Part shown: positions 42 through 46,462 of the stretch, piece by piece
How the letters are laid out: every line of letters starts with the position of its first letter
How positions within the stretch are numbered: position 1 is the first letter of the stretch
NCBI GenBank assembly: GCA_016700095.1
Contig: CP065002.1
Location: forward strand, 240,463 to 304,462
Direction: 5' to 3'
DNA: 64,000 nt
From: Candidatus Woesebacteria bacterium
GTDB taxonomy: Bacteria; Patescibacteriota; Microgenomatia; UBA8517
Program-made: the position numbers and the translations under genes
The notes under the pieces: generated by a model
Databases searched by the model: none
The model's input: only the letters and a program-made list of their open reading frames with translations
What the model was told of the DNA's origin: nothing

Positions 42-326
42 ATGGCTGATAAGAAAAATTTTTCGACAATTGGAGATTTACTTCAAGGTTACAAATCGTC
101 GGATGACGATAAATATGTGAGTCGTGAATTTCAAAAATACGGCTATGAGTTGGCCAAGGAATTGGGTGATCTAAAAAACAGGTCGCTTTACATAAAAATT
201 GCCAAAGAGAAAAAACGCGTGCATATTGAAAGCGCGAGAAGTTTTATTAAAGACGCGCAAAACGTCAGAAGTAAGCCCAAACTTTTTATGTGGAAACTTC
301 AACAATTATCGCTAAAGAAGAGTTGA
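42..326 (+). CDS. hypothetical small protein; C-terminal residues encoded by first unit of downstream tandem repeat
   Basis: ORF track; no recognisable motif; 3' end overlaps repeat array. Confidence 0.3.
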   Translation: MADKKNFSTIGDLLQGYKSSDDDKYVSREFQKYGYELAKELGDLKNRSLYIKIAKEKKRVHIESARSFIKDAQNVRSKPKLFMWKLQQLSLKKS

Positions 327-648
327 CACACAAACTTTTTATGTGGAAATTGAAACACTTGAAACTAAAGAAGAGTTGACACACAAACTTTGTTTATGTG
401 GAAACTTCAACAATTATCGCTAAAGAAGAGTTGACACACAAACTTTTTATGTGGAAATTGAAACACTTGAAACTAAAGAAGAGTTGACACACAAACTTTG
501 TTTATGTGGAAACTAAAACACTTGAAACTAAAGAAGAGTTGACACACAAACTTTTTATGTGGAAATTGAAACACTTGAAACTAAAGAAGAGTTGACACAC
601 AAACTTTTTATGTGGAAATTGAAACACCTGGAAACCAAAGGTAATGCC
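279..648. repeat. tandem array of about 7 units of 54-57 bp in two alternating variants; each unit contains ttgaca and tgtggaaat
   Basis: direct reading: aaactttttatgtggaaa[ttgaaacacttgaaac or cttcaacaattatcgc]taaagaagagttgacacac repeated head to tail. Confidence 0.9.
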
Positions 649-2961: not shown

Positions 2962-3678
2962 ATGGATGATTTGACCAAAAAAGAGAAACGAGAACTTGCG
3001 AAAAAAAGCAAGCACGAGGAGAAGGTAAAATCAAAACTGATGGGCAAAATTATAAAACTGGGTCTCGCAGTTTTAGTACTTTCAATAATTAGCTTCTTTG
3101 GTTACAAGGGAATTAAGTGGATTAATACACCAATTGATATTCCAGCTGATGTGACAATGGTTCAGGATGATGAGTGGGTGAAGGGTCCCAAAGAAGCAAG
3201 TGTAACATTGATTGAATATGCTGATTATCAATGTCCGGCATGTGCGGGGTATCACCCGATAGTCAGGCAGTTGGCCAAAGAATTCCCCGATGATTTACGG
3301 GTGGTCTATAGGCATTTTCCGTTAACTACAATCCATGCGAATGCGTTTTCGGCGGCAAAAGCTGCAGAGGCAGCGGGCAAACAAGGTAAATTCTGGGAGA
3401 TGCACGACATGTTGTACGAGCGCCAAAGTCAGTGGTCGGAAGGTAGTGCAAAAGAAAAATTTGTCGAATTTGCCCAAGAACTTGCTCTTGATGTTGATAA
3501 ATTTAAAGAAGATTTAGACAGTAGCCAGACTGAAGAGAGAGTGAGTGTCGGTATTGCATTGGGCAACAAAACCGGTGTAAACGCAACCCCAACCTTTATA
3601 CTAGACGGGGTAATGATAAGGCCGCCTCAAGACATTGAGCAGTTTAGAGCTCTTATTAACCAAAGATTGGGCAATTGA
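2962..3678 (+). CDS. membrane-anchored DsbA-like thioredoxin-fold protein (CPAC active site)
   Basis: N-terminal TM helix, YADYQCPACAGYHP motif, FPL...H pattern of the DsbA family. Confidence 0.7.
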   Translation: MDDLTKKEKRELAKKSKHEEKVKSKLMGKIIKLGLAVLVLSIISFFGYKGIKWINTPIDIPADVTMVQDDEWVKGPKEASVTLIEYADYQCPACAGYHPIVRQLAKEFPDDLRVVYRHFPLTTIHANAFSAAKAAEAAGKQGKFWEMHDMLYERQSQWSEGSAKEKFVEFAQELALDVDKFKEDLDSSQTEERVSVGIALGNKTGVNATPTFILDGVMIRPPQDIEQFRALINQRLGN

Positions 3679-3729
3679 AATATCTGACACTGCAGTGGTT
3701 AAGTTACGCCCGGCAAATTAGGCAAGTTA

Positions 3730-4287
3730 TCAGAGTTTGTTGAAGTTAACTTCTTCAATAGTAGTATTGTTAATAATTGTAAGCACACCCGGTTCGGGAT
3801 AATCGCCGACTTCTTCCACCGTAAAACTATTTGTGGTTACAAGATGTTTTAGAGCGGCAATTACGATTCCGTGAGTAGCGACAAATACTGTTTTGTACTT
3901 TTTTGTTTTCATCTCATTAATAAAATCAATTACCATATTCTTTTTGTCTTCAAAGTATCCGGAATATGGATATTCCGGTTCCAAATTTCTTTCGTCAAGC
4001 ATCTCGTTTAATCTCGGGTCACTTGTAAACTCTACTCCTGTTATGCGTGTTGCGATTGCTACTGTTTCTTGGACTCTGAGAATTTCACTTGCCGCTGCAT
4101 GATCTGGATGAATGACTTTTAAGTAATTAGCCATTCTAATAATTGCAGGAATTGCTTCTGGAAGAATTTCGGTGGTTAATTGTTTATCGCCGTATCCCGC
4201 ATCGTTTTCCTTGCTGGAAAAAGTCTCACCATGTCTTAAGATATAGAAAATCATTTTCGTTTTTGTTATAGTCGCATATGGACACAA
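3730..4287 (-). CDS. histidine phosphatase (phosphoglycerate-mutase-like) family protein
   Basis: ILRHGET (RHG catalytic motif) near N-terminus. Confidence 0.65.
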   Translation of the reverse strand: MCPYATITKTKMIFYILRHGETFSSKENDAGYGDKQLTTEILPEAIPAIIRMANYLKVIHPDHAAASEILRVQETVAIATRITGVEFTSDPRLNEMLDERNLEPEYPYSGYFEDKKNMVIDFINEMKTKKYKTVFVATHGIVIAALKHLVTTNSFTVEEVGDYPEPGVLTIINNTTIEEVNFNKL

Positions 4288-5774
4288 AAAATAAAAAAGT
4301 TAGATTGCTACTTGATTTCTACAAAGAAATTTCACTCCTTGGTAAAATTAATGCGCTTTTAGGTTATGACACCAATGTTAGTTTACCACCGAAAGGCGTT
4401 GAAGGTAGAGCGGAACAAACTGCTCACATAACGAAATTGATATCCGAAAAATGGCTTGACCCAAAGTTTCGAGCATTATTAGATAGTGTCAAAAATGTCA
4501 CTTCGTTGACACCGGAAGAAAAAGCAATTGTGAGAAATTTAACTTGGGCCGGTAAGTATTATTTTCAAGTTCCGCAAAAAACTGTCGTTGAATTTTCTAG
4601 AATTACCTCACATGCATTTTCTGCTTGGCACAAGGCAAGGACAGATAATAATTTTAAATTTTATTTGCCTCACTTGAAAAACATTATTTCTGTCAGCCGG
4701 GAAATAGCCGGACATTTAGGTTACAAAGACAATCCATACGACGCTTTGCTTGACATGTATGAACCCGAACTTACGGTTCAAAAATTTCAAATGGTTGTCG
4801 ACAAATTGCAGCCTGAGTTAACAGGTTTAGTTGAAAAAATAGCAAATTCCGGCAGGAGCAATTTAGCTGAGCCAAAGAGTGACTATGACATAAAAACCCA
4901 AGAAGAACTGGCAAAATTTGTCTTAACCACGATGGGGTACGATTTTGAAGCCGGCAGACAAGATGTTTCGCCACATCCTTTTACGGAAACGCTTGGAACA
5001 CAAGACGTGAGAATTACGAACAGATATAAAAACGATGCGTTTATAGAGCCGATTATGGTGGCGATGCATGAAGGCGGGCATGCCCTTTATGAGCAGGGAG
5101 TAAATCCCAAGTATGAATACACGCCTTTGTCTGGTGGAGTGTCGCTTGGAATTCACGAAAGCCAAAGCAGATTCTGGGAAAATCAAGTAGGGAGAAGCAA
5201 AGAATTTATAAGCTTCCTTACGCCTTTTATCAAATCCCATTTTCCCCAATTAAAAAATATATCAGCCGATGAGCTTTACAAAATATTTAATATTGTTAAA
5301 CCCGGTCAGATAAGAGTGGAAGCAGACGAAGTGACATACAATTTGCACATTTTTCTTCGATTTGAAATTGAAAATGCACTAATAAATGGCAAGCTTAAAC
5401 CGGAGAACTTACCTGAAATTTGGAATTCCAAAATGGAAAAATATTTGGGTGTAACTCCCGATTGCGATGCAAACGGAGTTCTGCAAGATGTTCATTGGGC
5501 TTACGGGAATTTCGGTTATTTTCCGACTTATACTTTGGGAAATTTGTATGCGGCACAGTTTACGGCTACGTTGAGTAAAAAACTGGATGTCAAAAAACTT
5601 TGCGCCAAGGGTGAGCTAACACCCATATTAATCTGGCTTAGACAACATATCCACACATACGGATCACTGTATTTCCCCGAAGAACTATGCAAAAAGGTTA
5701 CCGGTGAGACGCTTGATGTAAATTATTTCGTGACTTATCTTCACGAAAAATACCGGACGTTGTACTCGATTTAA
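4278..5774 (+). CDS. M32 family carboxypeptidase (carboxypeptidase Taq-like)
   Basis: HEGGHALYE zinc motif, HPF, DVHWAYGNFGYFPTYTLGNLYAAQ signature. Confidence 0.85.
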   Translation: MDTKNKKVRLLLDFYKEISLLGKINALLGYDTNVSLPPKGVEGRAEQTAHITKLISEKWLDPKFRALLDSVKNVTSLTPEEKAIVRNLTWAGKYYFQVPQKTVVEFSRITSHAFSAWHKARTDNNFKFYLPHLKNIISVSREIAGHLGYKDNPYDALLDMYEPELTVQKFQMVVDKLQPELTGLVEKIANSGRSNLAEPKSDYDIKTQEELAKFVLTTMGYDFEAGRQDVSPHPFTETLGTQDVRITNRYKNDAFIEPIMVAMHEGGHALYEQGVNPKYEYTPLSGGVSLGIHESQSRFWENQVGRSKEFISFLTPFIKSHFPQLKNISADELYKIFNIVKPGQIRVEADEVTYNLHIFLRFEIENALINGKLKPENLPEIWNSKMEKYLGVTPDCDANGVLQDVHWAYGNFGYFPTYTLGNLYAAQFTATLSKKLDVKKLCAKGELTPILIWLRQHIHTYGSLYFPEELCKKVTGETLDVNYFVTYLHEKYRTLYSI

Positions 5775-11248: not shown

Positions 11249-11478
11249 ACAACATTATAAGATTATTGCAAAGGTGTAAGGCAACAAGGTAAAAAAGCTG
11301 GTAAGATGAGGTTTGTATTCGTTTAGACTGTTAAATAGAAGCGTCGAAGAAAAATATCCAGCTTGGATTTAGCTGGCCTAAGATGGTAAAATAGCAGAGC
11401 CTTAAATTGCTTTGTAATTTATCAATTTTTAAAGTACAGGCTCTAATTTACAAAGTGAAATACAACTGAAAGTATTAA

Positions 11479-11550
11479 GGCCCTAACACAAAGTGCTACG
11501 GCCGAAAGAAATGAGGCCCTAACACAAAGTGCTACGGCCGAAAGAAATGA
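11479..11550 (+). repeat. 2 x 36-bp tandem units, each beginning with the first 7 nt of the downstream tRNA-Glu
   Basis: ggccctaacacaaagtgctacggccgaaagaaatga twice, immediately followed by ggccctatcg... of the tRNA. Confidence 0.85.
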
Positions 11551-14346: not shown

Positions 14347-14418
14347 GGGCCCGTAGCTCAGCGGCAGAGCAACAGCCTTTTAAGCTGATGGTCACAGGTT
14401 CGATCCCTGTCGGGCTCA
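14347..14418 (+). tRNA. tRNA-Lys (anticodon TTT)
   Basis: acceptor gggcccg/cgggctc, anticodon loop cTTTTaa, T-loop ttcgatc. Confidence 0.8.
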
Positions 14419-14646
14419 CAACGTAAAAAGATAAAGGAAGCTGACAACACTAATTGCTAATAACACCAGCGGAAGTTGTAATTAAAAAGTGGCACGTTAT
14501 TAAGGCTTTTCGATTGAGATAGTGATTTGGTTCAAACACAGTGACTTTAGTCGCGCAAGTGGTAGGACATTCCGGTGTAAACCGGAACAAGTTATTAAAA
14601 TTGAAAGATATTTAAAGTAAGTATGTTTTTATTGCGGGATCGTCTT

Positions 14647-14974
14647 CCGAGCCTCCGACCTAAAGTCGAGAGCTCGAGAATACGCGACCAACTTGTTGGG
14701 TCGGTATAATAAGGGATGGGGTATTGTTATGTATTAAGTTGTATCAACGGGAGCTACTATGTGGGTTCAACAAGAAACATTTACGATAGATTGGGTAATC
14801 ACAGAAATGGGCAAGTAAAATATACAAAAAACAATAGACCGCTTAAATTAATTTTTGTAAAAGAATTTGCAAGTTACAACTTAGCTTATAAATTTGAAAT
14901 GAAGGTAAAATCTTGGAAGAAAAGATCATCAATAGAAAAGATGATTGGTAAAAGTGATAATGTATGTTTAAAAT
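14647..14974 (+). mobile_element. 328-bp insertion carrying a GIY-YIG nuclease gene, flanked by the duplicated tRNA-Gln 5' fragment tattgcgggatcgtct
   Basis: insert lies between identical 16-nt copies at 14631-14646 and 14975-14990. Confidence 0.35.
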
Positions 14975-15075
14975 ATTGCGGGATCGTCTCTGCGAAGCAC
15001 AGCGATGAAATCGCGCAATTGGTAGGACATTCCGGTGTAAACCGGAACAAGTTATTAAAATTGAAGATTAATTAA
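14716..15075 (+). CDS. small GIY-YIG nuclease family protein (UPF0213/YhbQ-like); annotated C-terminus reads through into the next repeat unit, so the true end is probably earlier
   Basis: GYCYVLSC...YYVGST..L..RL..H pattern of the GIY-YIG domain; TATAAT-like box at 14705. Confidence 0.65.
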   Translation: MGYCYVLSCINGSYYVGSTRNIYDRLGNHRNGQVKYTKNNRPLKLIFVKEFASYNLAYKFEMKVKSWKKRSSIEKMIGKSDNVCLKYCGIVSAKHSDEIAQLVGHSGVNRNKLLKLKIN

Positions 15076-15321
15076 GTAAGTATGTTTTTATTGCGGGATC
15101 GTCTCTGTATAACACAGCGACAAAGTCGCGCAAGTGGTAGGACATTCCGGTGTAAACCGGAACAAGTTATTAAAATTGAAGATTAATTAAGTAAGTATGT
15201 TTTTATTGCGGGATCGTCTCTGTATAACACAGCGACAAAGTCGCGCAAGTGGTAGGACATTCCGGTGTAAACCGGAACAAGTTATTAAAATTGAAGATTA
15301 ATTAAGTAAGTATGTTTTTAT

Positions 15322-15392
15322 TGCGGGATCGTCTAATGGTAGGACAGCGGCCTTTGGAACCGTCAATCTAGGTTCGAATCCTGGTCCCGCAG
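15322..15392 (+). tRNA. tRNA-Gln (anticodon TTG) with U1:A72 pair
   Basis: acceptor tgcggga/tcccgca (U1:A72, typical of bacterial tRNA-Gln), anticodon loop cTTTGga, T-loop ttcgaat. Confidence 0.75.
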
Positions 15393-15445
15393 CATATTGT
15401 AGAGGGTTAGTAATCTGAAGGCTTAAAACAAAATTATTATCCTAA

Positions 15446-16258
15446 CTACAAAGTTCTTCGTACAAATAAATGTCCAGTAGAAGTTGTGAAGAAAATATTA
15501 AGTTTTATTTTTGATTGTTTATAATTATTGGAATAATATTCGCCAGATTTAACAAATTCAGTCTCGTCAAGTTTTGAATTACTTCCAATAGTTTCATAAG
15601 TTACTTTTACTCCAATCTCTTCCGGTAGGGCGATGGAAACCTTACCGCTTACTGTTTCGATTTCAAATGTTTCTTTGGGAATTGAATTTGAAGAAAATGA
15701 AAAATCAGCAGAGCCGAATGTGTTATTAAATTTAAATTTTCTTAAGTTCAGATTGGTGAAAGAACTTTTAACTGATGCTTTACCTGCATAAAAATCTAAA
15801 TCAACAGGTATAGTTTGACGTCCAAACTCAATGCCATATTTTATGGAGTCAGGAGTAGAAAGAGATTCGGGTTCTCCATCATCTCCTAAATTTATTAGTA
15901 GTTTGTCGGTATTAACTTTGTTGTGGACACTCACACCAAAAGGAGATCGAACACTTTTAGTGGAAACAAAATACGTAGATTCGGAAGTATCGGTAATGTC
16001 AACAGATCCTTGCGAAACAGTGATATTATACTGCACTTCCTGTATGTTCTTATAGTCTGATTGTTTAATGAATTGAGATGTGTTGATTGGGCTAAACGTA
16101 CGATTTTCGGATATGACAAACCGTGCAGTATGGAATATGTATAAAATACGTTGTGCTTTGTAATGAATGTTTAAGAAATTTGTTGCGTATGAGTAAGTAA
16201 AAAACGCAACAAGAGAAGTAAGTAGTATTAGCACATACAACTTCTTGTTTTTATCCAT
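15446..16258 (-). CDS. hypothetical membrane-anchored secreted protein
   Basis: N-terminal TM helix. Confidence 0.45.
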   Translation of the reverse strand: MDKNKKLYVLILLTSLVAFFTYSYATNFLNIHYKAQRILYIFHTARFVISENRTFSPINTSQFIKQSDYKNIQEVQYNITVSQGSVDITDTSESTYFVSTKSVRSPFGVSVHNKVNTDKLLINLGDDGEPESLSTPDSIKYGIEFGRQTIPVDLDFYAGKASVKSSFTNLNLRKFKFNNTFGSADFSFSSNSIPKETFEIETVSGKVSIALPEEIGVKVTYETIGSNSKLDETEFVKSGEYYSNNYKQSKIKLNIFFTTSTGHLFVRRTL

Positions 16259-27019: not shown

Positions 27020-27455
27020 GGGCGCAGCCCGCAACACCCAGCTAACAACAATCAACAAACAACTTTGATAGAATAAATTAATGAGTTTCAGATTTCTGAA
27101 ATTTAAAGTTTACCAGGATGCAAAAACACTGCATTCAGAAGTTGTTATTATATCGAGAAAATTCCCAAAAGATTTCTATTATCTCAAAGATCAGTTAAGA
27201 AGATGCTCTCTTTCAGTTGTCTTAAATATTGCTGAAGGTTCGGCTAAGACTTCCGACAAAGATTTTAATAGATATATCGAAAATTCACTGGGGTCTGCAA
27301 ATGAGGCAGCTTCTGCATTAGATGTTGCTTACTCCGAAAAAATAATAGAAATACATGATTATCACACTTTGTTAAAGTTAACAGAGGAAATTGTAAATCA
27401 ATTAGGTGGTTTTTCTAAAAAGTTGAAAGTTGGTGGTTGAGTGTTGTGGGTTACG
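27020..27455 (+). other. 16S intervening sequence forming a long hairpin (gcgcagcccgcaacac / gtgttgtgggttacgc) with a protein gene in the loop
   Basis: interrupts conserved 16S sequence between gcaagtggatcgg and gctagacgcgaacggctgagtaacacg. Confidence 0.6.
27081..27440 (+). CDS. four-helix-bundle protein of the rRNA intervening-sequence family (23S rRNA IVS protein-like)
   Basis: 119 aa; LHSEVVIISRKFPKDFYYLKDQLRRCSLSVVLNIAEGSAK pattern characteristic of IVS-encoded 4HB proteins; located inside the 16S IVS. Confidence 0.7.
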   Translation: MSFRFLKFKVYQDAKTLHSEVVIISRKFPKDFYYLKDQLRRCSLSVVLNIAEGSAKTSDKDFNRYIENSLGSANEAASALDVAYSEKIIEIHDYHTLLKLTEEIVNQLGGFSKKLKVGG

Positions 27456-27583
27456 CTAGACGCGAACGGCTGAGTAACACGTAGGAATCTACCTCTTGGC
27501 GGGGAATAGCCATGGGAAACCATGGTTAATACCGCATAAGATCTTCGGATGAAAGGATGTAACTATCCACCGAGAGAGGAGCC

Positions 27584-27626
<43 letters not shown>

Positions 27627-28149
27627 TACAACGGGTAGGGGACGTGAGAGCGTGTACCCCCAGAATGGTACTGAGATACGGACCATACACCTACGGGTGG
27701 CGCAACCAGGAATCGTGCGCAATGGGCGAAAGCCTGACGCCGCGACGCCGCGTGAAGGATTAAGGCCTATGGGTTGTAAACTTCTTTTACTTAAGTGGAG
27801 ACACTTTTGGGAATAAGCACCGGCTAACTTCGTGCCAGCAGCAGCGGTAATACGAAGGGTGCAAGCATTGTCCGGATTTATTGGGCGTAAAGCGTTCCGT
27901 AGGCGCATTGGAAAGTCACATTTCAAAGACCGGGGCTCAACCTCGGAAAGGGATGTGATACTACCTTTGTTGAAATATGTAGGGGCTACTGGAACTTAAC
28001 ATGTAGGAGTGAAATCCGTTGATATGTTAAGGAACACCGAGGGCGTAGGCAGGTAGCTGGACATTATTTGACGCTGATGGACGAAAGCCAGGGTAGCGAA
28101 AGGGATTAGAGACCCCTGTAGTCCTGGCCGTAAACGATGCTCGCTAGGG

Positions 28150-28290
28150 ATGTGGTCTACAAAGCATGTATGCTTTAAGAAACAGCCAACAATTAACAAA
28201 CAACTAACAACGAATTTAAGTTGGTAGTTGAGAGTTGAGGGTTGGGTGTTGTCTACAAAATGTATACATATTTTGTAGACTGCGTTCCGT
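28150..28290 (+). other. second 16S expansion/intervening hairpin (gtctacaaa...tttgtagac) with aacaattaacaaacaac motif
   Basis: replaces the short helix between ccgtaaacgatg and gctaacgcgttaagc. Confidence 0.5.
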
Positions 28291-28338
28291 AAGCTAACGC
28301 GTTAAGCGAGCCGCCTGGGGAGTACGAGCGCAAGCTTA

Positions 28339-28370
<32 letters not shown>

Positions 28371-29375
28371 CCAGTGGAGCATGTGGTTTAATTCGAGACG
28401 AACCGAAGAACCTTACCTGGACTTGACATCCCGACGACCGTTCTAGAGATAGAATTTTCACTATGTGACGTCGGTGACAGGTGCTGCATGGCTATCGTCA
28501 GCTCGTGCCGTAGGGTGTTCCCTTCAGTGGGGTAACGAGCGCAACCCTTGCCGTATGTTAAATTGTTCATACGGGACTGGTCGCCTTTGGCGACAGGAAG
28601 CGGGGACGATGTTAAGTCAGCATGGCCCTTATGTCCAGGGCTACACACATGCTACAATGGAGCCGACAGAGGGTTGCCAAAGAGCAATCTGGAGCTAATC
28701 CCAAAAACGGCTTCTCAGTTGGGATTGAGGGCTGCAATTCGCCCTCATGAACGCGGAATTGGTAGTAATCGCAAATCAGCTAAGTTGCGGTGAATACGTT
28801 CTCGGGTCTTGTACACACCGCCCGTCAAGTCAGAGGAGTTGGGGGCACCCGAACACCGAGAGTCTCGGTGGAAGGTGAAATCAGCAACTAGGATTAAGTC
28901 GTAACAAGGTATCCGTTCTGGAAGGAGCGGATGGATCACCTCCTTTCATGGAGTTGAGGTACGAAAAGTACAATAACACCCAAGTTTTCAGTCAGCGGTT
29001 TCTTTGTCTTTTTTAAGTTTACTTAAGGAAGAATAAAAACCGAGTCCGTATGTAACAACGATAAAGTACCGCTTCCAGTCATTTTTTGAGTGAGAGTATT
29101 AATCTTCAATTTTAAAAGTTTACTTCTAACAGTTTCGGATTTATTTTCGTAAAATCTTTAACCGTAGACTGATACAACCGACTTTAGTTGGTAGAGGATG
29201 TCATTTCGAACCTTATTCCCTTTACTGTAAATTCGTGAGTTAATTACATCAAGCATAGCTTAAATGCTTGACGATATATAAACCAAATGATTAAATGAGT
29301 TATGCCAAAGAGTAGAATAGTCCGCAGTGTATCTTGTGTAAGACTTCCCAACTAGATTTTATTTAATTTATTAAT

Positions 29376-35369: not shown

Positions 35370-36743
35370 CTAGTCTTCTCGGCCGCGCCATGCGCCAAAG
35401 GCCATCCCCAAGAGGATGGCTATGGGCGCGAGTGCGCACAACCATATAAGACTTGGCCCACTGCCGCCGGTCGAGGCACTTTTTAGGGTGCCAGGGGTGG
35501 AAACCAAAGGCGGCCGGCTGGGGGTGATGCTGACGGCGGGGGTGGGAGTGAGTTTGGTATCAGCGCATTGAGCGATGAAAACTACAGCGGGGTTACCCAC
35601 TTTTCCCGAGAATCGGTTGTTTTCGCTCTCAAAAAGAGGCGATAAAAACCAATTTTGAGGGAAGCTGTCACCTCCGCGGAACGCCTGCCCCTGACCAAGG
35701 GTTGACGTAACATTTGTTACAATCACACCCTCAGGGGGCAATTCCCATGTTCCCATGTATCCACTGCCGTCGGCCGTGTGCGGAAAGCCACCGAAATAGC
35801 TTCCAACGCCGATGGTTACGGTCATGGTTTCACCATGACCAGGCGTATATGACCCGTCAGGCCACTCACAGAAGTGATACCCTCTCAGGTACCCCTTAAT
35901 GATTCCCGGCGTGGGGCTGGGGGTGTTGGTGACCCACGGCGTTGCCGTTGTCGTCGGTGTTGGTGTAACCGTGCCAGGGGTGGGGGTGAAGGGCGATGTC
36001 GGTGTTGGCGTCACGGTCAATGTCGGTGTGAACGTTGGCGTCACGGTCAATGTCGGTGTGAACGTTGGCGTCACGGTCAATGTCGGTGTGAACGTTGGCG
36101 TCACGGTCAATGTCGGTGTGAACGTTGGCGTCACGGTCAATGTCGGTGTGAACGTTGGCGTCACGGTCAATGTCGGTGTGAACGTTGGCGTCACGGTCAA
36201 TGTCGGTGTGAACGTTGGCGTCACGGTCAATGTCGGTGTGAACGTTGGCGTCACGGTCAATGTCGGTGTGAACGTTGGTGTCCATGTGGGCGTGGGTTCG
36301 GGACAGTTTCCCTGAACTACTACTTGAACGCTTCCACCTGGGTTGGGAGATGTATCCACGTGATTAAATTCACAATGGACTTCTCCGCCCGGAGGTATTT
36401 GAAATCCAAAACTGTTTTGGTATGGGTCAACTGTTCCCAATAAACCCTCAAAACCGTTCGAGCAGGAGTAAGTTATTAACTCCCATTCGTCTGGTCCCGA
36501 CCATACGCTCTGTGTATTTACGTTTACCTCCATTGTTGATGTGTTGCTATCATTGACGATTGTGACATCGTCCGTGACTTGTTCACACCAATAACTGGGT
36601 GTTGTGTGCTCTGAGCACAGTATTGCACTTATCCAGTAGTAGTTTTGGGCTTGGATATTTGTGGCACTGCCACCTAACAACATTGTTGAAAACAATAGGA
36701 TCCCGAAGATCCATTTCGTGATTTTCGCTGTCTGTTTAGACAT
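35370..36743 (-). CDS. GC-rich secreted surface protein with 9-10 perfect TPTFTPTLTV repeats and C-terminal hydrophobic anchor plus RGRED tail
   Basis: signal peptide, 30-bp perfect DNA repeats, C-terminal TM. Confidence 0.6.
   Translation of the reverse strand: MSKQTAKITKWIFGILLFSTMLLGGSATNIQAQNYYWISAILCSEHTTPSYWCEQVTDDVTIVNDSNTSTMEVNVNTQSVWSGPDEWELITYSCSNGFEGLLGTVDPYQNSFGFQIPPGGEVHCEFNHVDTSPNPGGSVQVVVQGNCPEPTPTWTPTFTPTLTVTPTFTPTLTVTPTFTPTLTVTPTFTPTLTVTPTFTPTLTVTPTFTPTLTVTPTFTPTLTVTPTFTPTLTVTPTFTPTLTVTPTPTSPFTPTPGTVTPTPTTTATPWVTNTPSPTPGIIKGYLRGYHFCEWPDGSYTPGHGETMTVTIGVGSYFGGFPHTADGSGYMGTWELPPEGVIVTNVTSTLGQGQAFRGGDSFPQNWFLSPLFESENNRFSGKVGNPAVVFIAQCADTKLTPTPAVSITPSRPPLVSTPGTLKSASTGGSGPSLIWLCALAPIAILLGMAFGAWRGRED
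35995..36290. repeat. about 10 perfect tandem copies of a 30-bp unit (gtcaatgtcggtgtgaacgttggcgtcacg) inside the surface-protein gene
   Basis: direct reading. Confidence 0.9.
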
Positions 36744-37314: not shown

Positions 37315-37570
37315 AATTTTGCATATTTCCCCCAATAAGGGTAAGTAGTAACTTTCTTAAGTTACACCCTTTTGCCTTAACCCTCGATTTATTAATCGGG
37401 GTTTGCCGTATGTCCATCCACAACTAATGCAATTTGGATAAATCCAATAAAGGATTTGTCCTCCTACGCAATGAGCTACGGAAGGACTGCACTCCGATTA
37501 TTATCGGAGTTTGCCATTCACTAAGTTTTTAAAGAGCTAGCGGTAACTTGTACCTTTCTCTATTAGTAAT

Positions 37571-37624
37571 CTGTAATTGGCAGCTCGCGTTGGTTAAATT
37601 TAACTTTGGCCAACTGCCACTTAC
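37571..37624 (+). repeat. exact 54-bp direct repeat, copy 1 (ctgtaattggcagctcgcgttggttaaatttaactttggccaactgccacttac)
   Basis: identical copy at 38151-38204. Confidence 0.9.
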
Positions 37625-37802
37625 TGATTACTAATGTCAGGAATTAGGCACTAGGTAGTTAGATAATTACCTAATTCCTAAACTGATCCAGTATCCTATA
37701 TTGCGTACCTGCACAAATGTCGTTTGAGCGTTAGTTGTCTGCCAGTTATGTGACCTTCTGACGCAACAAACAACAAACAACAAACAACAATCAACTGTCA
37801 AC

Positions 37803-37935
37803 TTGTAACAAGTAACCTGTAACAAATAGTAAATAACCTGTAACAAGTAACTAGTAACAAGTAACTAGTAACAAGTAACTAGTAACAAATAACTAGTAAC
37901 AAATAACCTGTAACAAATAACCTGTAACCATTAAC
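37803..37935. repeat. about 9 tandem 14-bp units (taacaagtaactag / taacaaataacctg) preceded by an aacaaac microsatellite
   Basis: direct reading. Confidence 0.85.
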
Positions 37936-38150
37936 CGATAACTGGTAACTTGTTACCATTAATTATTAGTTTTTCGAACCTTATGAGTTTCGGTGATACA
38001 CCCATCAAGACTGTTGTCATGCACGCTTCCTTGTCATTCCCGCGGAAGCGGGAATCCAGCCTAGATCCCATAGATCCCCGATCAGGTCGGGGATGACAAA
38101 ATATGAAACTTGTGTACCCGATACTTTTTTACTTTTGCACTTTTAGCACC

Positions 38151-38204
38151 CTGTAATTGGCAGCTCGCGTTGGTTAAATTTAACTTTGGCCAACTGCCAC
38201 TTAC
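38151..38204 (+). repeat. exact 54-bp direct repeat, copy 2
   Basis: identical to 37571-37624. Confidence 0.9.
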
Positions 38205-38974
38205 AGACGGCTAATATCCTAACAAGATATCGAATATCGAATATCGAATATCTAACACCTGCTATAGACATATGCTACTTGCTTTTCAATTACCCCAAAT
38301 GTCTTTTGGTTGCCAATTGCTCGACAAATAGGTGACAGACGGGCTCTATCGGGCTTTTATTGCCTTTGTTTGATTTGCATACCCAGCTTACGGCTAAGTA
38401 TCAAATTCAATTTCTTGGCTTCTTGGCAGACAGGTCAGTCGAACTCACAAGTCGTGTTTCAACCAATCTGCCTGCCCAAAAGCCAAGGCTGTAGTTAGTG
38501 ATATTTTTCGACCTTCAAACGCAAAAAACCACACCTTAGAGTGTGGTTAAACTATATGCAAACTATTAAAGCCAAACCCGAGTACCTACCCGCAGTTTAA
38601 GCAGTATTCTCCCTTTAGCTTTTTTTCCTTCTAATAAATAAAAAGTATTAAGGCTTAAAAAGCTTATAAAGGAGTAAAAAAATAGTTTGCACAAGATCTG
38701 CCGTTTGACAAGATCAATTAATTTCCTCTAAAGCTACCTAGATTTCTCTAAGTGTTGGCAGTCTATCAAAGAGAGTGATAATTGTCAAGAGGGGAAATAA
38801 AGTAGCAAGTAGCAAGTAGCAAGTAGGTGGTAGATGGGTAGGAATTGAGTAAATACTAATTCCTAAACTCTAATTTCCTAAAAACAACCCCGGGGGTTGG
38901 AATAGCCTCAATCTAACCCCCGGGGTTGGAATTTGAAAACTTGGAAACTAATTCATTGCCTCTGTGAGGTATGG

Positions 38975-42698: not shown

Positions 42699-42955
42699 AA
42701 GGGTTTATATGACTAATAGAATTTTATTGATGGTTGTAGTTTGACCAATTATTTTTTGTCTACTCCTAAAGATTAAACTCCCTCGTTATTGGGAGCCGCG
42801 CATAGTAATTTGTATTTAGAAGTAGATTGCGATAGGGAAACTGACGATGAGAAAGTTGAGTTTCTTATTTCAGCTATAAATATAATCACAAATCTCAACT
42901 AATATTTACGCACTAAGTTTCTGAATCAGAAATCTTAACTCTAAATATATATTAG

Positions 42956-43029
42956 TGGGCGCGCATGGACTCGAACCATGGACCTCCAAATTATCAGTTT
43001 GGCGCTCTAACCAACTGAGCTACGCGCCC
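42956..43029 (-). tRNA. tRNA-Ile (anticodon GAT), inverted relative to the rRNA genes
   Basis: reverse complement gives gggcgcgtagctcagttggttagagcgccaaacTGATaatttgg...ggttcgagtccatgcgcgccca. Confidence 0.8.
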
Positions 43030-43931: not shown

Positions 43932-44084
43932 TTTCTAGTATAAATACTAGATATAATTCGCACATTAAATTTTACTTGCCCTACATTCATCTAAAATTCG
44001 AAAAACGAATTTATAAGAGGAAGAACAATGGAGCGTTGAAAGCAAGCTTTCTGCCTGCTTAATTTAGTGGACTCGTTCCGACGC

Positions 44085-44308
44085 GGGCCGTTAGCTCAGT
44101 TGGATAAGCAAAGCTTGGCCACTTGATCTAACCACCTTACGGGTTGTTAGCTCAGTTGGATAAGCAAAGCTTGGCCACTTGATCTAACCACCTTACGGGT
44201 TGTTAGCTCAGTTGGATAAGCAAAGCTTGGCCACTTGATCTAACCACCTTACGGGCCGTTAGCTCAGTTGGATAAGCAAAGCTTGGCCACTTGATCTAAT
44301 CGCCTTAC
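44085..44308 (+). repeat. 4 x 56-bp tandem units, each starting with tRNA-Ala nt 1-19 (gggccgttagctcagttgg) followed by ataagcaaagcttggccacttgatctaaccaccttac
   Basis: unit starts 44085, 44141, 44197, 44253; tRNA starts 44309. Confidence 0.9.
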
Positions 44309-44385: not shown

Positions 44386-45034
44386 ATGAGTACATTGATG
44401 AACCATGTGGTTTTCGAGGAATGCAACCAAGTAGGGAAAGTGCATGGCGAATCCCACACGGTCCACTCATTAGGAATTGGGAATTAAGTAGTTAGTAGTT
44501 AGTAGATGGTAGATTGGTAATAGAAATTTGGATTTTTAACATTAGTATTTAGTTTTAAGTTTCAAGTACCAACAATTAAGAATTGCGGAATACTTGACAC
44601 TAAATACTTATTAGTAGGTAATAACAACGCAGAAAAATTTTGTTGTGAGTTGTGAGAACCGGTTAGACTTAACCAGTTTTACAGAACACACCAACAGATT
44701 TGTACTTTAACAACTAAGAGAATGAAGTCACTTTAAGTGTACTTCATGGAAAAGGCCGTGAACCATCATTTATTTGATGATTCACAACACAAAAGCAATT
44801 TTGCAAAGCATGATGCTTTGCATTGAGAAAAATCCCGTACTTGATACGGGATGAAACGCTAAGTTTAAGTTTACTTAACGCAGACAGTGGATGCCTTGGT
44901 CTAGATTACCGAAGAAGGACGTGCAAGACTGCGAAAAGCGTCGGTGAGTTGTCAAGAAACATTACAGCCGGCGATGTCCGAATGGGGAAACCCGCACTGC
45001 TTCACCGCAGTGAACTCGTGCTCCAAGGGGCACT

Positions 45035-45141
45035 CTAAACAGGTAACAATTAACTACCAACTAGAATTAGTAATTGACTTTTAACTATAAGTTAACAGTT
45101 GAAAACTCATTGGTGTGTTGATTGTTGTTTGTTTGGAGTGC
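45035..45141 (+). other. 23S intervening hairpin 1 (helix 9/10 region)
   Basis: extra sequence between ggggcactc and ggagtgcc relative to conserved 23S; aacaattaac...gttgattgttg arms. Confidence 0.5.
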
Positions 45142-45254
45142 CTATTAAGGCGCGTAGAGGGAACCGCCCGAACTGAAACATCTAAGTAGGGCGAGGAAGA
45201 GAAATCAACGAGATTGCCTAAGTAGCGGCGAGCGAAACGGCAAGAGCCCAAAGG

Positions 45255-45355
45255 TGTGCGTAGCACACAACAGTTAACAATTAACATTCAACTACCAACT
45301 TTAAATTAAAGTGTTGGCAATTGATTGTTGTAAGTTGAAAGTTGTGTGCTATGCG
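45255..45355 (+). other. 23S intervening hairpin 2
   Basis: cacaacagttaacaattaac ... gttgtaagttgaaagttgtgtg arms. Confidence 0.45.
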
Positions 45356-45652
45356 CACCGGTTGTGGGACCGCAACGTGGTAGTTTTTTTGATAGCAGAA
45401 TGACATGGAATAGTCAGCCATAGAACGTGATAGACGTGTATGCGAAATCAAAAGGACGCCTAGCGGTATCCCGAGTACGACGATGCATCTACATCGTCGG
45501 AATCTGGGGGAACCATCCTCCAAGGCTAAATATGATCTAGAACCGATAGTGGACAAGTACCGTGAGGGAAAGGTGAAAAGAAGGGCGGAACGCCCAGTGA
45601 AATAGAACCTGAAACTGTTTGCGAACAATCCGATAGAGCCAGTGCATAGCAC

Positions 45653-45742
45653 TGAACTATTAACTTCCAACACACAACAATTGACATTTGGTTAATTGTT
45701 GGGAGCTTGTATAGAAGCGTGTTGATTTGTTGATGGTTCCGC
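45653..45742 (+). other. 23S intervening hairpin 3 (helix 25 region, a classical IVS site)
   Basis: aacacacaacaattgac ... gcgtgttgatttgttgatgg arms. Confidence 0.5.
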
Positions 45743-46369
45743 GCTGTGCGCGGGTAATATCGTGCCTATTGAAGAATGAGCCAGTGAGTTTTCGTGTTTT
45801 TTAAGTTTAAGCCGTAATTACGGCGAAGGCGTAGGGAAACCAAGTGTGATAAGCGCGAATAAAAAAACGCGGAAGACCCGAAACCAGGTGAGCTATCCAT
45901 GAGCAGGGTGAAGCCCATAGAAATATGGTGTGGAAGCCCGAACTCGTATCAGATGCAATTGATTGGGATGACTTGTGGATAGGGGTAATATGCTAATCGT
46001 ACCTGGAGATAGCTGGTTCTCCCCGAAAGGTGTTTAGGCACCGTGGCATCGAAAAACTACAGGGTGGTAGAGCTACTGAATGGGATAATGAGGGTAATCT
46101 GAGTTATCTCAACCAAACTCCGAATAACTTGTAGTATGCGTTGCTAGACAGCCACACGGGGCTAAGCTCGTGTGACAAAAGGGAAACAACCCGGACTCTC
46201 GGCTAAGGTCTCTAATGTATCTTAAGTTTTTAAGGAAGTTTTTTATCATAGACAGCTAGGAGGTTGGCTTAGAAGCAGCCATCCTTTAAAGAAAGCGTAA
46301 CAGCTCACTAGTCGATGATAAGAAGCGCCGAAGATGTATCGAGGATTAAAGATACTACCGAAGCTAGAG

Positions 46370-46462
46370 GTGTCGTGCTTTGCACGCAACAACCAACAAA
46401 AACAGCCAACAGTCAACAATTAAGTTGGAAATTGGAAGTTGATTGCTGCGTGCAGAGTGCGG
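46370..46462 (+). other. 23S intervening hairpin 4 (helix 45 region, a classical IVS site)
   Basis: gcacgcaacaaccaacaaaaacagccaac ... ggaagttgattgctgcgtgc arms. Confidence 0.5.

Follow-up and report, generated by a model that had tools for sequence, protein, structure and literature searches.

A hairpin-associated GIY-YIG nuclease cassette at the 5′ ends of tRNA genes in Candidatus Woesebacteria: a probable small selfish element

SegB, a free-standing GIY-YIG homing endonuclease encoded in the tRNA gene cluster of phages T4 and T6, recognises tRNA-gene sequence (PMC2330249) and promotes the inheritance of itself together with neighbouring tRNA DNA. It also drives recombination-dependent tandem amplification, and there the 5′ end of the tRNA shares microhomology with the 3′ end of segB (PMC13096335). 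SegB has a separate DNA-binding part, a target in the TΨC region and no isotype preference. The Ssn proteins (clade cd10448) are single-domain GIY-YIG site-specific nucleases with NTS/SRM hairpin repeats, which cut ssDNA only, at a site a few nt 5′ of the hairpin: their describers note that the arrangement NTS-ssnA-NTS resembles an insertion sequence, and the main text of their paper mentions neither tRNA nor CPR/Patescibacteria (Chenal et al. 2025, PMC11893778).

Tyrosine-integrase islands and prophages invade a tRNA gene, restore it from a copy carried by the element and leave a fragment duplicated; both duplicate the 3′ part of the tRNA, need an integrase and are kilobases long. REP/BIME-RAYT and IS200/IS605 systems employ HUH tyrosine transposases, which form covalent intermediates. 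Group I introns have been reported in the tRNA genes of Patescibacteria, usually in the anticodon loop (PMC13011429).

The locus described here lies in a window (the whole stretch of DNA that was analysed, 64,000 nucleotides) of a Candidatus Woesebacteria (CPR) genome. The 12-mer TGCGGGATCGTC, which is nt 1-12 of tRNA-Gln, occurs five times in the window (at 14633, 14977, 15092, 15207 and 15322) and has no other copy there; for five copies the chance expectation is far below one. TRF resolves 14974-15334 into 3.1 copies with a period of 115 bp (96% matches), and a second repeat search gave the same register. Together with the 12-mer positions these bear out the periodicity, with tRNA-Gln 5′ starts, that a sequence-only reading of this DNA had reported. 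Short-read contigs obtained independently for the same organism break within the repeat region, as a true repeat would predict. That reading counted four units, of which three are full units (U1 to U3); the copy at 14633 is the left repeat of a cassette, and one further, older unit (U0) precedes it.

Table 1. Positions of the features discussed, numbered from the first nucleotide of the window.
Feature	Position	Strand	Description	Support
tRNA-Glu array	11478..11550	+	two 36-nt units, each starting with tRNA-Glu nt 1-7 (AGGCCCTA)	TRF 36 nt × 2.2, 100%
U0	14518..14632	+	older unit with decayed copy of the tRNA 5′ fragment	global alignment to U2
X-left	14633..14645	+	direct repeat of tRNA-Gln nt 1-13 (TGCGGGATCGTCT), left cassette border	
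SE	14646..14707	+	dyad-symmetric two-hairpin element at D-loop position 13/14	predicted fold
SE hairpin D1	14646-14679		TCCGAGC...GCTCGAGA	
SE hairpin D2	14680-14707		ATACGCGACC...GGGTCGGTAT	
TATAAT box	14705..14710	+	SE end (GGTA) plus D-loop remnant TAAT; putative promoter	5 nt before ATG
GIY-YIG nuclease ORF	14716..15075	+	119 aa	Pfam PF01541, E 9.5e-17
GATAAT box	14956..14961	+	putative −10-like box, 15 nt before X	promoter scan TAGAAA-17-GATAAT
U1	14977..15091	+	ORF-less 115-bp unit (X + 28-nt hairpin insert + D-loop remnant + hairpin + tail)	fold z-score −3.2
U2	15092..15206	+	115-bp unit: X 15092-15104, insert 15105-15132, D-loop remnant 15133-15144, hairpin 15145-15162, tail 15163-15206	fold z-score −3.6
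U3	15207..15321	+	115-bp unit	identical to U2 (115/115)
tRNA-Gln (UUG)	15322..15393	+	functional tRNA	ARAGORN; Rfam tRNA 56.4 bits
tRNA-Ala array	44084..44308	+	four 56-nt units, each starting with tRNA-Ala(UGC) nt 1-19	TRF 56 nt × 4.4, 96%
tRNA-Ala 3′ fragment	44449..44466	+	duplicated fragment GAATCCCACACGGTCCAC	starts 64 nt past tRNA

Each full unit consists of X (tRNA nt 1-13), a 28-nt insert, a D-loop remnant AGTGGTAGGACA (tRNA nt 14-25 read AATGGTAGGACA), a hairpin TTCCGGTGTAAACCGGAA and a 44-nt AT-rich tail. U1 differs from U2 and U3 at eight positions, all within the insert that follows nt 13, and these include a compensatory change (CGAT/ATCG vs CGAC/GTCG). U0, which contains a repeat-family copy at 14549-14615, retains an intact D-loop remnant, hairpin and AT-rich tail. 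The units had been taken for pseudo-tRNAs, a description that does not hold: neither ARAGORN nor the Rfam tRNA model matched them, the latter even at E <= 10, and all that they contain of the tRNA is nt 1-13 and nt 14-25, set 28 nt apart. An Rfam scan of the whole window at gathering thresholds and a permissive scan of 14400-15450 returned only the true tRNA at the locus; matches to the IS605-orfB model, at 12 bits against a threshold of 94, are chance. A resemblance of the unit tail to the 3′ end of the nuclease ORF seemed plausible by eye and was dropped (p = 0.7).

As a secondary observation, each unit contains an inverted copy of X that could allow it to fold back. Single tests of this are weak (p 0.003-0.47), and a Fisher combination of six independent tests, our own calculation, gives ~1e-4.

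The first X borders an insert of 328 bp (14646-14973) that carries the GIY-YIG gene and its TATAAT box and is flanked on both sides by the 16-mer TATTGCGGGATCGTCT, as had been noticed from the letters alone; the whole cassette spans ~344 bp (14633-14976). The X of U1 doubles as its right repeat. Cassette and unit inserts share one junction, between tRNA nt 13 and 14. In the related locus L002 the layout unit-cassette-unit-tRNA recurs with a nuclease protein only 64% identical, and a left repeat of 12-13 nt homologous to X-left is present in 11 related Gln/Glu loci. The flanking repeat had been interpreted as a target duplication. The repeat stands, but it is more likely a built-in homology arm or a regenerated gene end than a transposase-style duplication, because its length tracks the tRNA and because the stop codon of the ORF is completed by tRNA nt 13-15. 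The locus also departs from the integrase islands: between 13751 and 16258 there is no integrase-sized ORF (the domain scan covered the GIY-YIG ORF), the direct repeat is the 5′ rather than the 3′ end of the tRNA, and the cassette supplies a 5′ part and a putative promoter in ~0.35 kb. A group I intron was considered and rejected: the Rfam scans matched no intron model, and a complete, uninterrupted tRNA follows the cassette.

A conserved non-coding part of the cassette is the two-hairpin element, SE, whose second hairpin is an inverted copy of the first; in one relative (L022) the core is a perfect palindrome. The same fold is predicted in 22 copies, and RNAalifold gives 21 pairs, 11 with compensatory changes. 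Paired cells amount to 98.6%, as against 82.9% in shuffled alignments and 31-45% in slid controls, and compensatory cells number 79 as against 25 in shuffles; for neither measure did any of 500 shuffles reach the observed value. G·U pairs are rare (8 of 415 cells). SE is followed by TAAT in 18 of the 22 copies and by TAATGG in 13. The second hairpin stops 8 nt short of the start codon in the window; in relatives this gap is about 3-20 nt.

The nuclease is a member of the GIY-YIG superfamily by its domain and its conserved Tyr, Tyr, Arg and Glu: Y14, Y15, R25, H29 and E61 are invariant across the aligned family proteins. An identical NCBI protein is annotated in Candidatus Woesebacteria. The catalytic domain occupies aa 1-70 of the window ORF; in this clade the protein ends ~15-20 residues beyond the domain in a conserved C-terminus of its own, KSWKKR…PDNI..KY followed by CG[IV]V, these last four residues being encoded by the tRNA. 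No other domain was found in Pfam, NCBIfam or PADLOC, and PHROGs gave one weak match of unknown function. The gene is under purifying selection (dN/dS 0.07-0.34).

In the standard Gln/Glu cassette the ORF is 91 aa long, takes its last codons from tRNA nt 1-12 and terminates at a codon formed by nt 13-15; of 19 Gln/Glu loci, 13 have a stop codon whose final base is tRNA nt 15. The window ORF has no stop of its own: where TAA is usual it has TCT, and it reads on into U1, so that its 119 aa compare with 88-92 aa in most relatives (the part equivalent to 91 aa ends at 14988). This copy has lost its stop codon and may be in decay. Length outliers among the relatives reflect differing start calls and decayed copies. 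The putative −10-like GATAAT falls within the conserved C-terminal codons ..DN.. (PDNI in most relatives, SDNV here), and in 12 related loci it lies 9-21 nt, mostly 15 nt, before tRNA +1.

The association between nuclease and tRNA 5′ end, proposed from the window, extends well beyond it. Of the 23 loci in other genomes and in metagenomes that could be assessed, 22 have a family member with a tRNA gene 0-130 nt downstream on the same strand: tRNA-Gln in 16, tRNA-Glu in three and tRNA-Ala in three. The match to the tRNA 5′ end is reproduced in these copies with each genome's own tRNA sequence, an outcome with which the sequence-only reading withstands the refuting check that it had set itself; the left repeat, 345-370 nt before the tRNA, is nt 1-13 of the resident or of a foreign tRNA.

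Gln, Glu and Ala are also the three identities that bear 5′-fragment arrays in the window, which upholds the claim that such arrays recur there at tRNA-Glu and tRNA-Ala. The Glu array immediately precedes tRNA-Glu (11551) and the Ala array precedes tRNA-Ala-UGC (44309). The Glu units contain a CAC-AAA-GTG hairpin and an imperfect inverted X copy (fold z-score −3.7); the Ala units continue after nt 19 with TAAGCAAAGCTTGGCC and likewise an imperfect inverted X copy. Both the 36- and the 56-nt units are almost all hairpin, and fold z-scores for units of the window arrays range from −2.4 to −3.7. No nuclease gene adjoins either array, whose tie to the element rests on tRNA identity and on shared motifs such as AAGCAAAGCTTGG, common to the window Ala units and the Gln unit of one relative (L009). 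Fragments of the tRNA 3′ end similar to that downstream of tRNA-Ala follow the tRNA in six relatives (L021, L023, L027-L029, L033). By eye there is a TGGTAAAAT box near 11384, followed by older, decayed Glu copies that appear to begin near 11397 and near 11438.

Several features of the related loci point to movement. Cassettes that are 81-92% identical in DNA sit in 1.5-kb flanks without any blastn match to one another. In L022 and L025 there are 5′ fragments whose acceptor stem differs from that of the resident tRNA, and in L011 and L023 X-left (TGCGGGA) fits a 3′ fragment lying downstream (…TCCCGCAGC) rather than the working tRNA (TGCCGGA). L028 is a deletion derivative. The relative at L017 is bounded by inverted repeats and adjoins rpmE, not a tRNA, and at L018 and L021 the element interrupts an old tRNA-Ala in its anticodon loop and brings a replacement tRNA with it. 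Synonymous divergence between the most similar cassettes is 0.24-0.34; transfers of the cassette are therefore not recent, and long-term vertical inheritance with loss of synteny may be an alternative account of their distribution. Synteny searches found no empty site, that is, the same locus without a cassette: the neighbour protein in the window had no relatives in them, the loci that hold homologues of the L002 neighbour (75-87% identity) contain no tRNA-Gln, and the contigs of closer relatives end before the tRNA.

Together the above analyses lead us to favour the view that the locus is probably a small selfish element, built around a single-domain GIY-YIG nuclease and specialised on tRNA 5′ ends, together with gene-less derivatives. 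The autonomous part would be the ~344-bp cassette, comprising the left copy of tRNA nt 1-13, SE, a D-loop remnant that completes TATAAT, and the ORF. In the standard arrangement the second copy of nt 1-13, where the ORF ends, is the start of the working tRNA, and the C-terminal codons containing GATAAT would provide its −10 box. The cassette would thereby split the start of a tRNA gene and rebuild it from its own copy, so that the host would retain a working tRNA.

We infer the specificity of the nuclease, the break site, the repair route and any function of the units along the following lines. The nuclease, probably recognising the hairpins or the D-loop region, would break tRNA-gene DNA, and repair would copy the cassette into the break, guided by homology over 13 nt at its left side and over the tRNA body at its right: in effect, homing without an intron. 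As a GIY-YIG hydrolase has no means of rejoining DNA, this would depend on host repair. The working tRNA has intact nt 1-25, so a model in which the enzyme cuts the uninterrupted tRNA would have it cut the occupied allele as well. The 115-bp units would be ORF-less, hairpin-bearing relatives with a short insert at the same 13/14 site, the second unit hairpin resembling the type associated with the nuclease. They may have multiplied beside the tRNA when the 13-16-nt repeats recombined unequally, a process that the nuclease possibly stimulates, as SegB does in phage. A nuclease-driven origin of the units, as first suggested, finds experimental precedent in SegB (PMC13096335), with cutting and copying themselves as the conjectural steps. 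Against the element stands the protein itself, which at 91 aa lacks the kind of DNA-binding domain that gives classical GIY-YIG homing enzymes their specificity.

Likeness to SegB extends to the GIY-YIG domain and to a gene adjoining tRNA genes. Unlike SegB, with its N-terminal GIY-YIG and C-terminal DNA-binding domains, the protein here has 91 aa in a single domain and is chromosomal in CPR bacteria; most junctions fall in the D-loop, the ORF extends into the tRNA, from which it takes its stop codon, and the cassette contains a conserved two-hairpin element. A phage origin was rejected: the SE pattern and relatives of the protein were both absent from the viral contigs searched, and PADLOC gave no match. 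As in REP/BIME-RAYT and IS200/IS605 systems, inverted pairs of short hairpins accompany a small nuclease gene, and ORF-less copies outnumber ORF-bearing ones. The minimal single-domain build is that of the UPF0213 / YhbQ-YazA proteins (bacterial Slx1-like), which supply the best matches among solved structures (BH0048, E 4.3e-13; EF2693, E 6.1e-10); the UPF0213 matches examined have no repeat of a tRNA 5′ end, unlike the cassette.

The element as a whole may, we suggest tentatively, represent a previously undescribed class of CPR/Patescibacteria mobile element: a hairpin-associated GIY-YIG cassette that resides in tRNA 5′ ends, uses the tRNA as homology arms, donates a promoter and 5′ end, borrows its last codons and stop, and gives rise to ORF-less derivatives, X-hairpin units and MITE-like copies of SE, which accumulate in 5′-fragment arrays. 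We found no description of this architecture in the literature.

A domesticated host nuclease of the Ssn type is an unlikely alternative to the selfish element. SE and the unit hairpins would be its binding sites, nothing would be mobile, the gene would do no more than share a transcript with a highly expressed tRNA, and the arrays would serve the host, for example by controlling the tRNA operon or DNA that enters the cell. A stand-alone GIY-YIG domain of ~90-95 aa (the family proteins, typically 88-92 aa, fall in with the single-domain build of ~90-100 aa of Ssn), purifying selection and a gene accompanied by conserved, covarying hairpins are all as this account would have them. The flanks of the hairpins also look similar (CGTC…TTCC…GGAAT.C): SE hairpin 1 with tRNA nt 9-13 (CGTC-TTCCGAKC…GMTCG(A)GAA-T) resembles the NTS CGTCATTCCCGCG…GCGGGAATC of Ssn (PMC11893778), as does the unit hairpin (GACA-TTCCGG…CCGGAA-C), and by eye the two share the flanks CGTC/GACA…TTCC…GGAA…C. 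Hairpins of canonical type occur upstream in L026, one of them confirmed by a relaxed hairpin scan.

Compared with those of Ssn, however, the hairpins here are longer, come as inverted pairs and are joined directly to the 5′ end of a tRNA. Neither SE nor the units match the SRM pattern as published. The nearest solved or annotated relatives are of UPF0213/YazA type: a tblastn search of a collection that includes N. gonorrhoeae chromosomes gave no Neisseria match at E ≤ 1e-3, the best matches being YazA-like, B. subtilis yazA being among them and the matches in this plasmid collection falling to YazA-like or housekeeping-looking genes. Further points against a resident host gene are that the cassettes sit in flanks that are unrelated, that tRNA fragments of foreign origin and derivatives with deletions occur, and that at other sites there are relatives with inverted repeats at their borders.

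The SRM pattern has one match in the window, at 38070, to which the relaxed hairpin scan adds a partner at 38033. The resulting near-canonical NTS pair (38033-38097) lies 23 kb from the cassette. Its presence in the window suits a domesticated Ssn-type nuclease; that it is the sole canonical pair found in 64 kb does not.

It is improbable that the element acts at the level of RNA, with SE as a structured 5′ UTR, regulator or processing signal of the nuclease mRNA and the units as structured leaders or small RNAs that are co-transcribed with the precursor of the tRNA. By cleaving at tRNA +1, RNase P would then strip the nuclease mRNA of its stop codon and limit expression. The covariation of SE fits RNA equally well; the short distance from its second hairpin to the start codon, the stop codon within the tRNA, the fold z-scores of the units and the position of the Glu units, by eye between the TGGTAAAAT promoter-like box and the tRNA, are in keeping with such a role. 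No Rfam family matches, however, G·U pairs are scarce, and the dyad symmetry of SE, with its palindromic core in L022, points to DNA recognition on both strands. An RNA role would explain expression rather than spread and is compatible with the selfish element.

A similarly low probability attaches to tandem duplication of a promoter or leader by replication slippage, independent of the nuclease and with the cassette as a later insertion into one unit: the identity of U2 and U3, the exact period, the AT-rich tails and the precedent of E. coli, where 178-bp repeats, each closing on a 3′ fragment of tRNA-Tyr, lie downstream of the tyrT operon, agree with it, but all three window arrays start exactly at tRNA +1 and at the three identities of the nuclease family, L002 repeats the layout, unit insert and cassette share the 13/14 junction, the Ala units share a motif with the Gln unit of L009, the tails contain no sigma-70 promoter at the scan threshold, and the 36- and 56-nt units, almost wholly hairpin, are too short for one, which also weakens the tandem-promoter function once proposed for the units.

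The small selfish GIY-YIG element would explain a recurrent oddity of CPR genomes, namely tRNA genes that follow arrays of their own 5′ fragments, with small GIY-YIG genes adjoining, and it would provide a rule for annotation: the nuclease ORF ends inside the tRNA. It would show how compactly a selfish gene can lodge in an essential gene and leave it functional: the element would supply the promoter and first 13 nt and borrow a stop codon. Minimal GIY-YIG proteins, widespread and of largely unknown function, would be tied to a covariation-supported DNA motif and to a target that can be tested in vitro. The finding would extend to the cellular genomes of a major uncultured radiation what has been found in phages, where a tRNA-directed GIY-YIG nuclease leads to tandem amplification. 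Should the nuclease prove Ssn-like, it would be the first hairpin nuclease of its kind linked both to a defined target in the genome and to its own propagation.

In this window of a Candidatus Woesebacteria (CPR/Patescibacteria) genome, the tRNA-Gln gene is preceded by four extra copies of its first 12 nt, and no further copies occur elsewhere in the 64 kb. TRF returns a period of 115 bp (3.1 copies, 96%), so that both the periodicity and the tRNA 5′-fragment copies (the 12-mer occurs at five sites) recognized in the sequence-only reading are borne out. Each unit consists, in order, of tRNA nt 1–13 (hereafter X), a 28-nt insert, a D-loop remnant AGTGGTAGGACA (compare tRNA-Gln nt 14–25, AATGGTAGGACA), the hairpin TTCCGGTGTAAACCGGAA and a 44-nt AT-rich tail. 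The two units nearest the tRNA (U2 and U3) show no differences; U1 differs from U2 at eight positions, every one inside the insert. These differences are confined to 27 nt (14993–15019 versus 15108–15134), the remaining 88 nt being the same. The insert behaves as an exchangeable or hypervariable module; among the differences is a compensatory pair (CGAT-GAA-ATCG in U1, CGAC-AAA-GTCG in U2). The most diverged copy lies farthest from the tRNA, and identical copies adjoin it. Short-read contigs from the same organism stop within the repeats, as expected of a genuine repeat.

Positions of features in the window
Feature	Position	Strand	Basis or detail
Older unit, X decayed	14518–14632		alignment to U2
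X, left copy	14633–14645		opens the cassette (14633–14976)
Two-hairpin element (SE)	14646–14707		
TATAAT	14705–14710		
GIY-YIG ORF	14716–15075		
Unit U1	14977–15091		opens with X
Unit U2	15092–15206		opens with X
Unit U3	15207–15321		opens with X
tRNA-Gln(UUG)	15322–15393	+	tRNA gene calling (ARAGORN, Rfam)
tRNA-Glu	11551		two 36-nt units upstream
tRNA-Ala-UGC	44309		four 56-nt units upstream
Copy of tRNA-Ala 3′ end	44449–44466		18 nt; begins 64 nt past the tRNA
NTS/Ssn-type hairpin pair	38033–38097	+ and −	inverted orientation; GTCATTCCCGCGGAAGCGGGAATCCAG on +, GTCATCCCCGACCTGATCGGGGATC on −
rRNA genes and tRNA-Ile	27394–28946, 42955–43029, 44863–48164		rRNA genes unlinked; 16S and 23S 16 kb apart
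Tandem repeat	278–640		53/108-nt units × 6.8
Tandem repeat	36004–36282		30-nt unit × 9.3, 99% identity

The arrangement recurs, as had been suggested, at tRNA-Glu and tRNA-Ala-UGC, where each upstream unit opens with the tRNA's own 5′ end; no such arrays precede tRNA-Lys, tRNA-Ile or tRNA-Ala-CGC in the window. By eye, divergence in the Glu array is again greatest far from the tRNA, with identical copies nearest. Fragments comparable to the 3′ copy that follows tRNA-Ala are found after tRNA-Gln in four related loci (L027, L028, L029 and L033), often behind a conserved stretch of ∼100 nt (…GGATGAGAAGTTTAC…). The tRNA-Ile gene lies on the opposite strand from the rRNA genes. The 23S match is 3302 nt long against a 2925-nt model, implying ∼380 nt of inserted sequence; 23S insertions are common in CPR.

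The cassette carries a GIY-YIG ORF (Pfam E 9.5e-17) whose product is identical to an NCBI protein. Related loci came from three sources: protein homologues read within their contigs, all of them directly upstream of tRNA-Gln; species-representative genomes scanned by protein alignment (14 loci); and metagenomes scanned with a DNA pattern of the cassette's non-coding part (11 loci). After exclusion of redundant entries and of two loci truncated at contig ends, 23 loci were counted, and 22 of them have a tRNA 0–130 nt further down the same strand (Gln 16, Glu 3, Ala 3): exactly the three identities with arrays in the window. A left copy of tRNA nt 1–13 stands 345–370 nt before the tRNA, so that the match to the tRNA 5′ end is reproduced in related Gln and Glu loci.

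Of the 19 Gln/Glu loci, 13 have an ORF that runs into the tRNA as far as nt 15: its last four codons are tRNA nt 1–12 (Gln, …CG[IV]V; Glu, …GPIV or …APIV) and its stop, TAA or TAG, is nt 13–15. The window cassette is followed by U1, which has TCT in place of the tRNA's TAA, rather than by the tRNA, and the frame therefore reads through to 119 aa; close homologues are 64–70% identical, and most homologues have 88–91 aa. A conserved C-terminal …PDNI… is encoded by …GATAAT…, 9–21 nt (mostly 15 nt) ahead of the tRNA +1, and from its sequence GATAAT could plausibly serve the tRNA as a −10 box. Purifying selection acts on the protein (dN/dS 0.07–0.34). It belongs to a large family (1,911 representatives at E ≤ 1e-10) and within it to a small, tight clade (five representatives at E ≤ 1e-30). 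Named relatives among those sampled are Patescibacteria, some MAG loci being labelled “Gammaproteobacteria” or “Omnitrophota” (labels as given); viral contigs yielded no relatives.

SE, a conserved element of 60–90 nt, occupies the space from the left repeat to the ORF. It begins exactly after tRNA nt 13, and neither SE nor the rest of the cassette matches an Rfam family. Hairpin 1 follows the plan TCCGAnn-[inner hairpin]-nnTCG(A)GA; hairpin 2, which is hairpin 1 inverted, follows AT(A/G)C-n-CGAYn-[loop]-nRTCG-G(T/C)AT. Folded singly, the 22 copies reach the predicted structure except that of L022, a Glu locus, where the centre is a perfect palindrome (ATCGAGCATGCTCGAT) and the core folds otherwise; here SE sits within a 5′ tRNA-Glu fragment that runs on as CCTAGGACA. 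For 20 distinct copies RNAalifold predicts 21 base pairs, of which 11 show compensatory changes. Paired cells reach 98.6% versus 82.9% in shuffles (0/500 as high) and compensatory cells 79 versus 25 (0/500), while slid controls are 31–45% paired; AATAC, for example, always occurs with GGTAT, and AATGC with GGCAT. Since the TAAT(GGTAG) directly after SE agrees with the tRNA D-loop from nt 13 onward, the apparent TATAAT box is formed where the SE end meets the D-loop.

Several observations point to mobility. Cassettes at five loci (L001, L011, L030, L031 and L033) share 81–92% DNA identity, and their 1.5-kb flanks show no detectable similarity on either side. In L022 and L025 the acceptor stems of the cassette-side 5′ fragments differ from the resident tRNA. 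In L011 and L023 the pairing partner of the left fragment (TGCGGGA) is a 3′ fragment further downstream (…TCCCGCAGC), not the working tRNA in between (TGCCGGA…TCCGGCA); an older tRNA was therefore split and replaced. One copy (L028) is an internal-deletion derivative and another (L026) has an insertion within its ORF. A more distant Ala-associated branch (∼40% identity) has the inverted repeats GTCCCGAT…ATCGGGAC at its borders: in L018 and L021 the element interrupts an old tRNA-Ala at the anticodon loop and brings a full replacement tRNA, L019 is a 72-nt ORF-less copy in the D-loop of a tRNA-Ala fragment, and in L017 the element adjoins rpmE, without a tRNA. A synteny search of related loci recovered no empty allele.

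Several neighbouring features were also recorded. The ABC-transporter operon of the relative L002 occurs at four loci (L038–L041; permease 75–87% identical) with no tRNA-Gln nearby; the block of tRNA-Gln and cassette thus does not keep a fixed place on the chromosome. In L001 the tRNA-Gln that bears the cassette is immediately followed (3469–5063) by genes for a large serine recombinase (Resolvase/Recombinase/Zn_ribbon) and an HTH protein, which may be a separate integrated element on the same tRNA. By eye, L025 has a second, different GIY-YIG-like frame (…YVLYSYIILSSKGTYFYFGYTDDLANRLKQHNEGKVPST…) ∼40 nt past tRNA-Gln, oriented ∼3450–3560.

What, then, are the units? A tandem-promoter system is unlikely, because a promoter scan detected no sigma-70-like promoter in the tails and the Glu and Ala units could not accommodate one. 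Nor does their description as pseudo-tRNAs hold: they are hit neither by ARAGORN nor by the Rfam tRNA model with its E cut-off relaxed to 10. They are strongly structured (fold z-scores −2.4 to −3.7). Further on in each unit stands an imperfect inverted repeat of X, with which X tends to pair (single tests p 0.003–0.47; ∼1e-4 by our own Fisher combination of six independent tests) and, by eye, every filler holds a small C-AAA-G or C-GAA-G hairpin (Gln CGACAAAGTCG, Glu CACAAAGTG, Ala AAGCAAAGCTT). Units of different tRNAs in different genomes share a motif, AAGCAAAGCTTGG(CC), behind the D-loop GG(T)A (window Ala units, 44106–44286; L009 Gln unit, 2781–2816), of which L026 has the version AAGCAAAGCTTCC at ∼2517. 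Units and cassette have the same left junction, the insertion falling precisely after nt 13, and the units keep the D-loop remnant. L002 repeats the order unit–cassette–unit–tRNA with a nuclease only 64% identical and a different tRNA acceptor stem. In our reading the units are either derivatives of the element that bear hairpins and no ORF, or footprints of its activity; they would have multiplied via unequal recombination between X repeats.

By analogy, the closest functional precedent is SegB of phage T4/T6, a GIY-YIG homing endonuclease encoded among clustered tRNA genes, which recognises the tRNA TΨC motif (PMC2330249). SegB has recently been shown to drive tandem amplification of tRNA-Tyr and segB, a process that is nuclease- and recombination-dependent and involves microhomology of the tRNA 5′ end with the segB 3′ end (PMC13096335). 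SegB is, however, a two-domain phage protein, whereas the window nuclease is single-domain. Ssn proteins are single-domain GIY-YIG proteins of ∼94 aa that bind NTS/SRM hairpins in ssDNA and cut a few nucleotides upstream of these repeats, which often flank ssn genes (PMC11893778). SE hairpin 1 together with tRNA nt 9–13, and the unit hairpin after GGACA, resemble the NTS in their flanks. Against membership of the Ssn family, SE does not fit the SRM pattern as published, the nearest solved-structure relatives of the nuclease are UPF0213 proteins, and a tblastn search of Neisseria (plasmid collection) gave no match to it. The cassette may therefore work like an Ssn system, with Ssn membership a candidate assignment. 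The window also contains a single near-canonical NTS-type pair, of which GTCATTCCCGCGGAAGCGGGAATCCAG departs from the published NTS consensus at one of the 27 nt compared; the surrounding ∼1.6 kb (37315–38974) holds heptamer repeats and no ORF of at least 60 aa save one 62-aa TTG ORF. Recent work on Patescibacteria tRNA introns concerns group I introns at position 35/36, and our literature searches returned no account of bacterial tRNA genes with a GIY-YIG cassette inside their 5′ ends, nor of arrays of 5′ fragments like these.

The pattern is genuine and is reproduced from genome to genome. On balance we favour, with some reserve, the view that the locus holds a selfish cassette with a single-domain GIY-YIG nuclease, specialised for the 5′ ends of tRNAs, together with its ORF-less derivatives; the detailed mechanism, for which we infer nuclease activity, specificity, strand and break site, is offered more tentatively. 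The cassette joins features of SegB-type tRNA-associated homing and of Ssn-type hairpin nucleases; its gene overlap is unusually intimate. As to how the working tRNA escapes cutting, the hairpins may be needed for recognition, in which case the enzyme would act on its own element instead of on naive targets.
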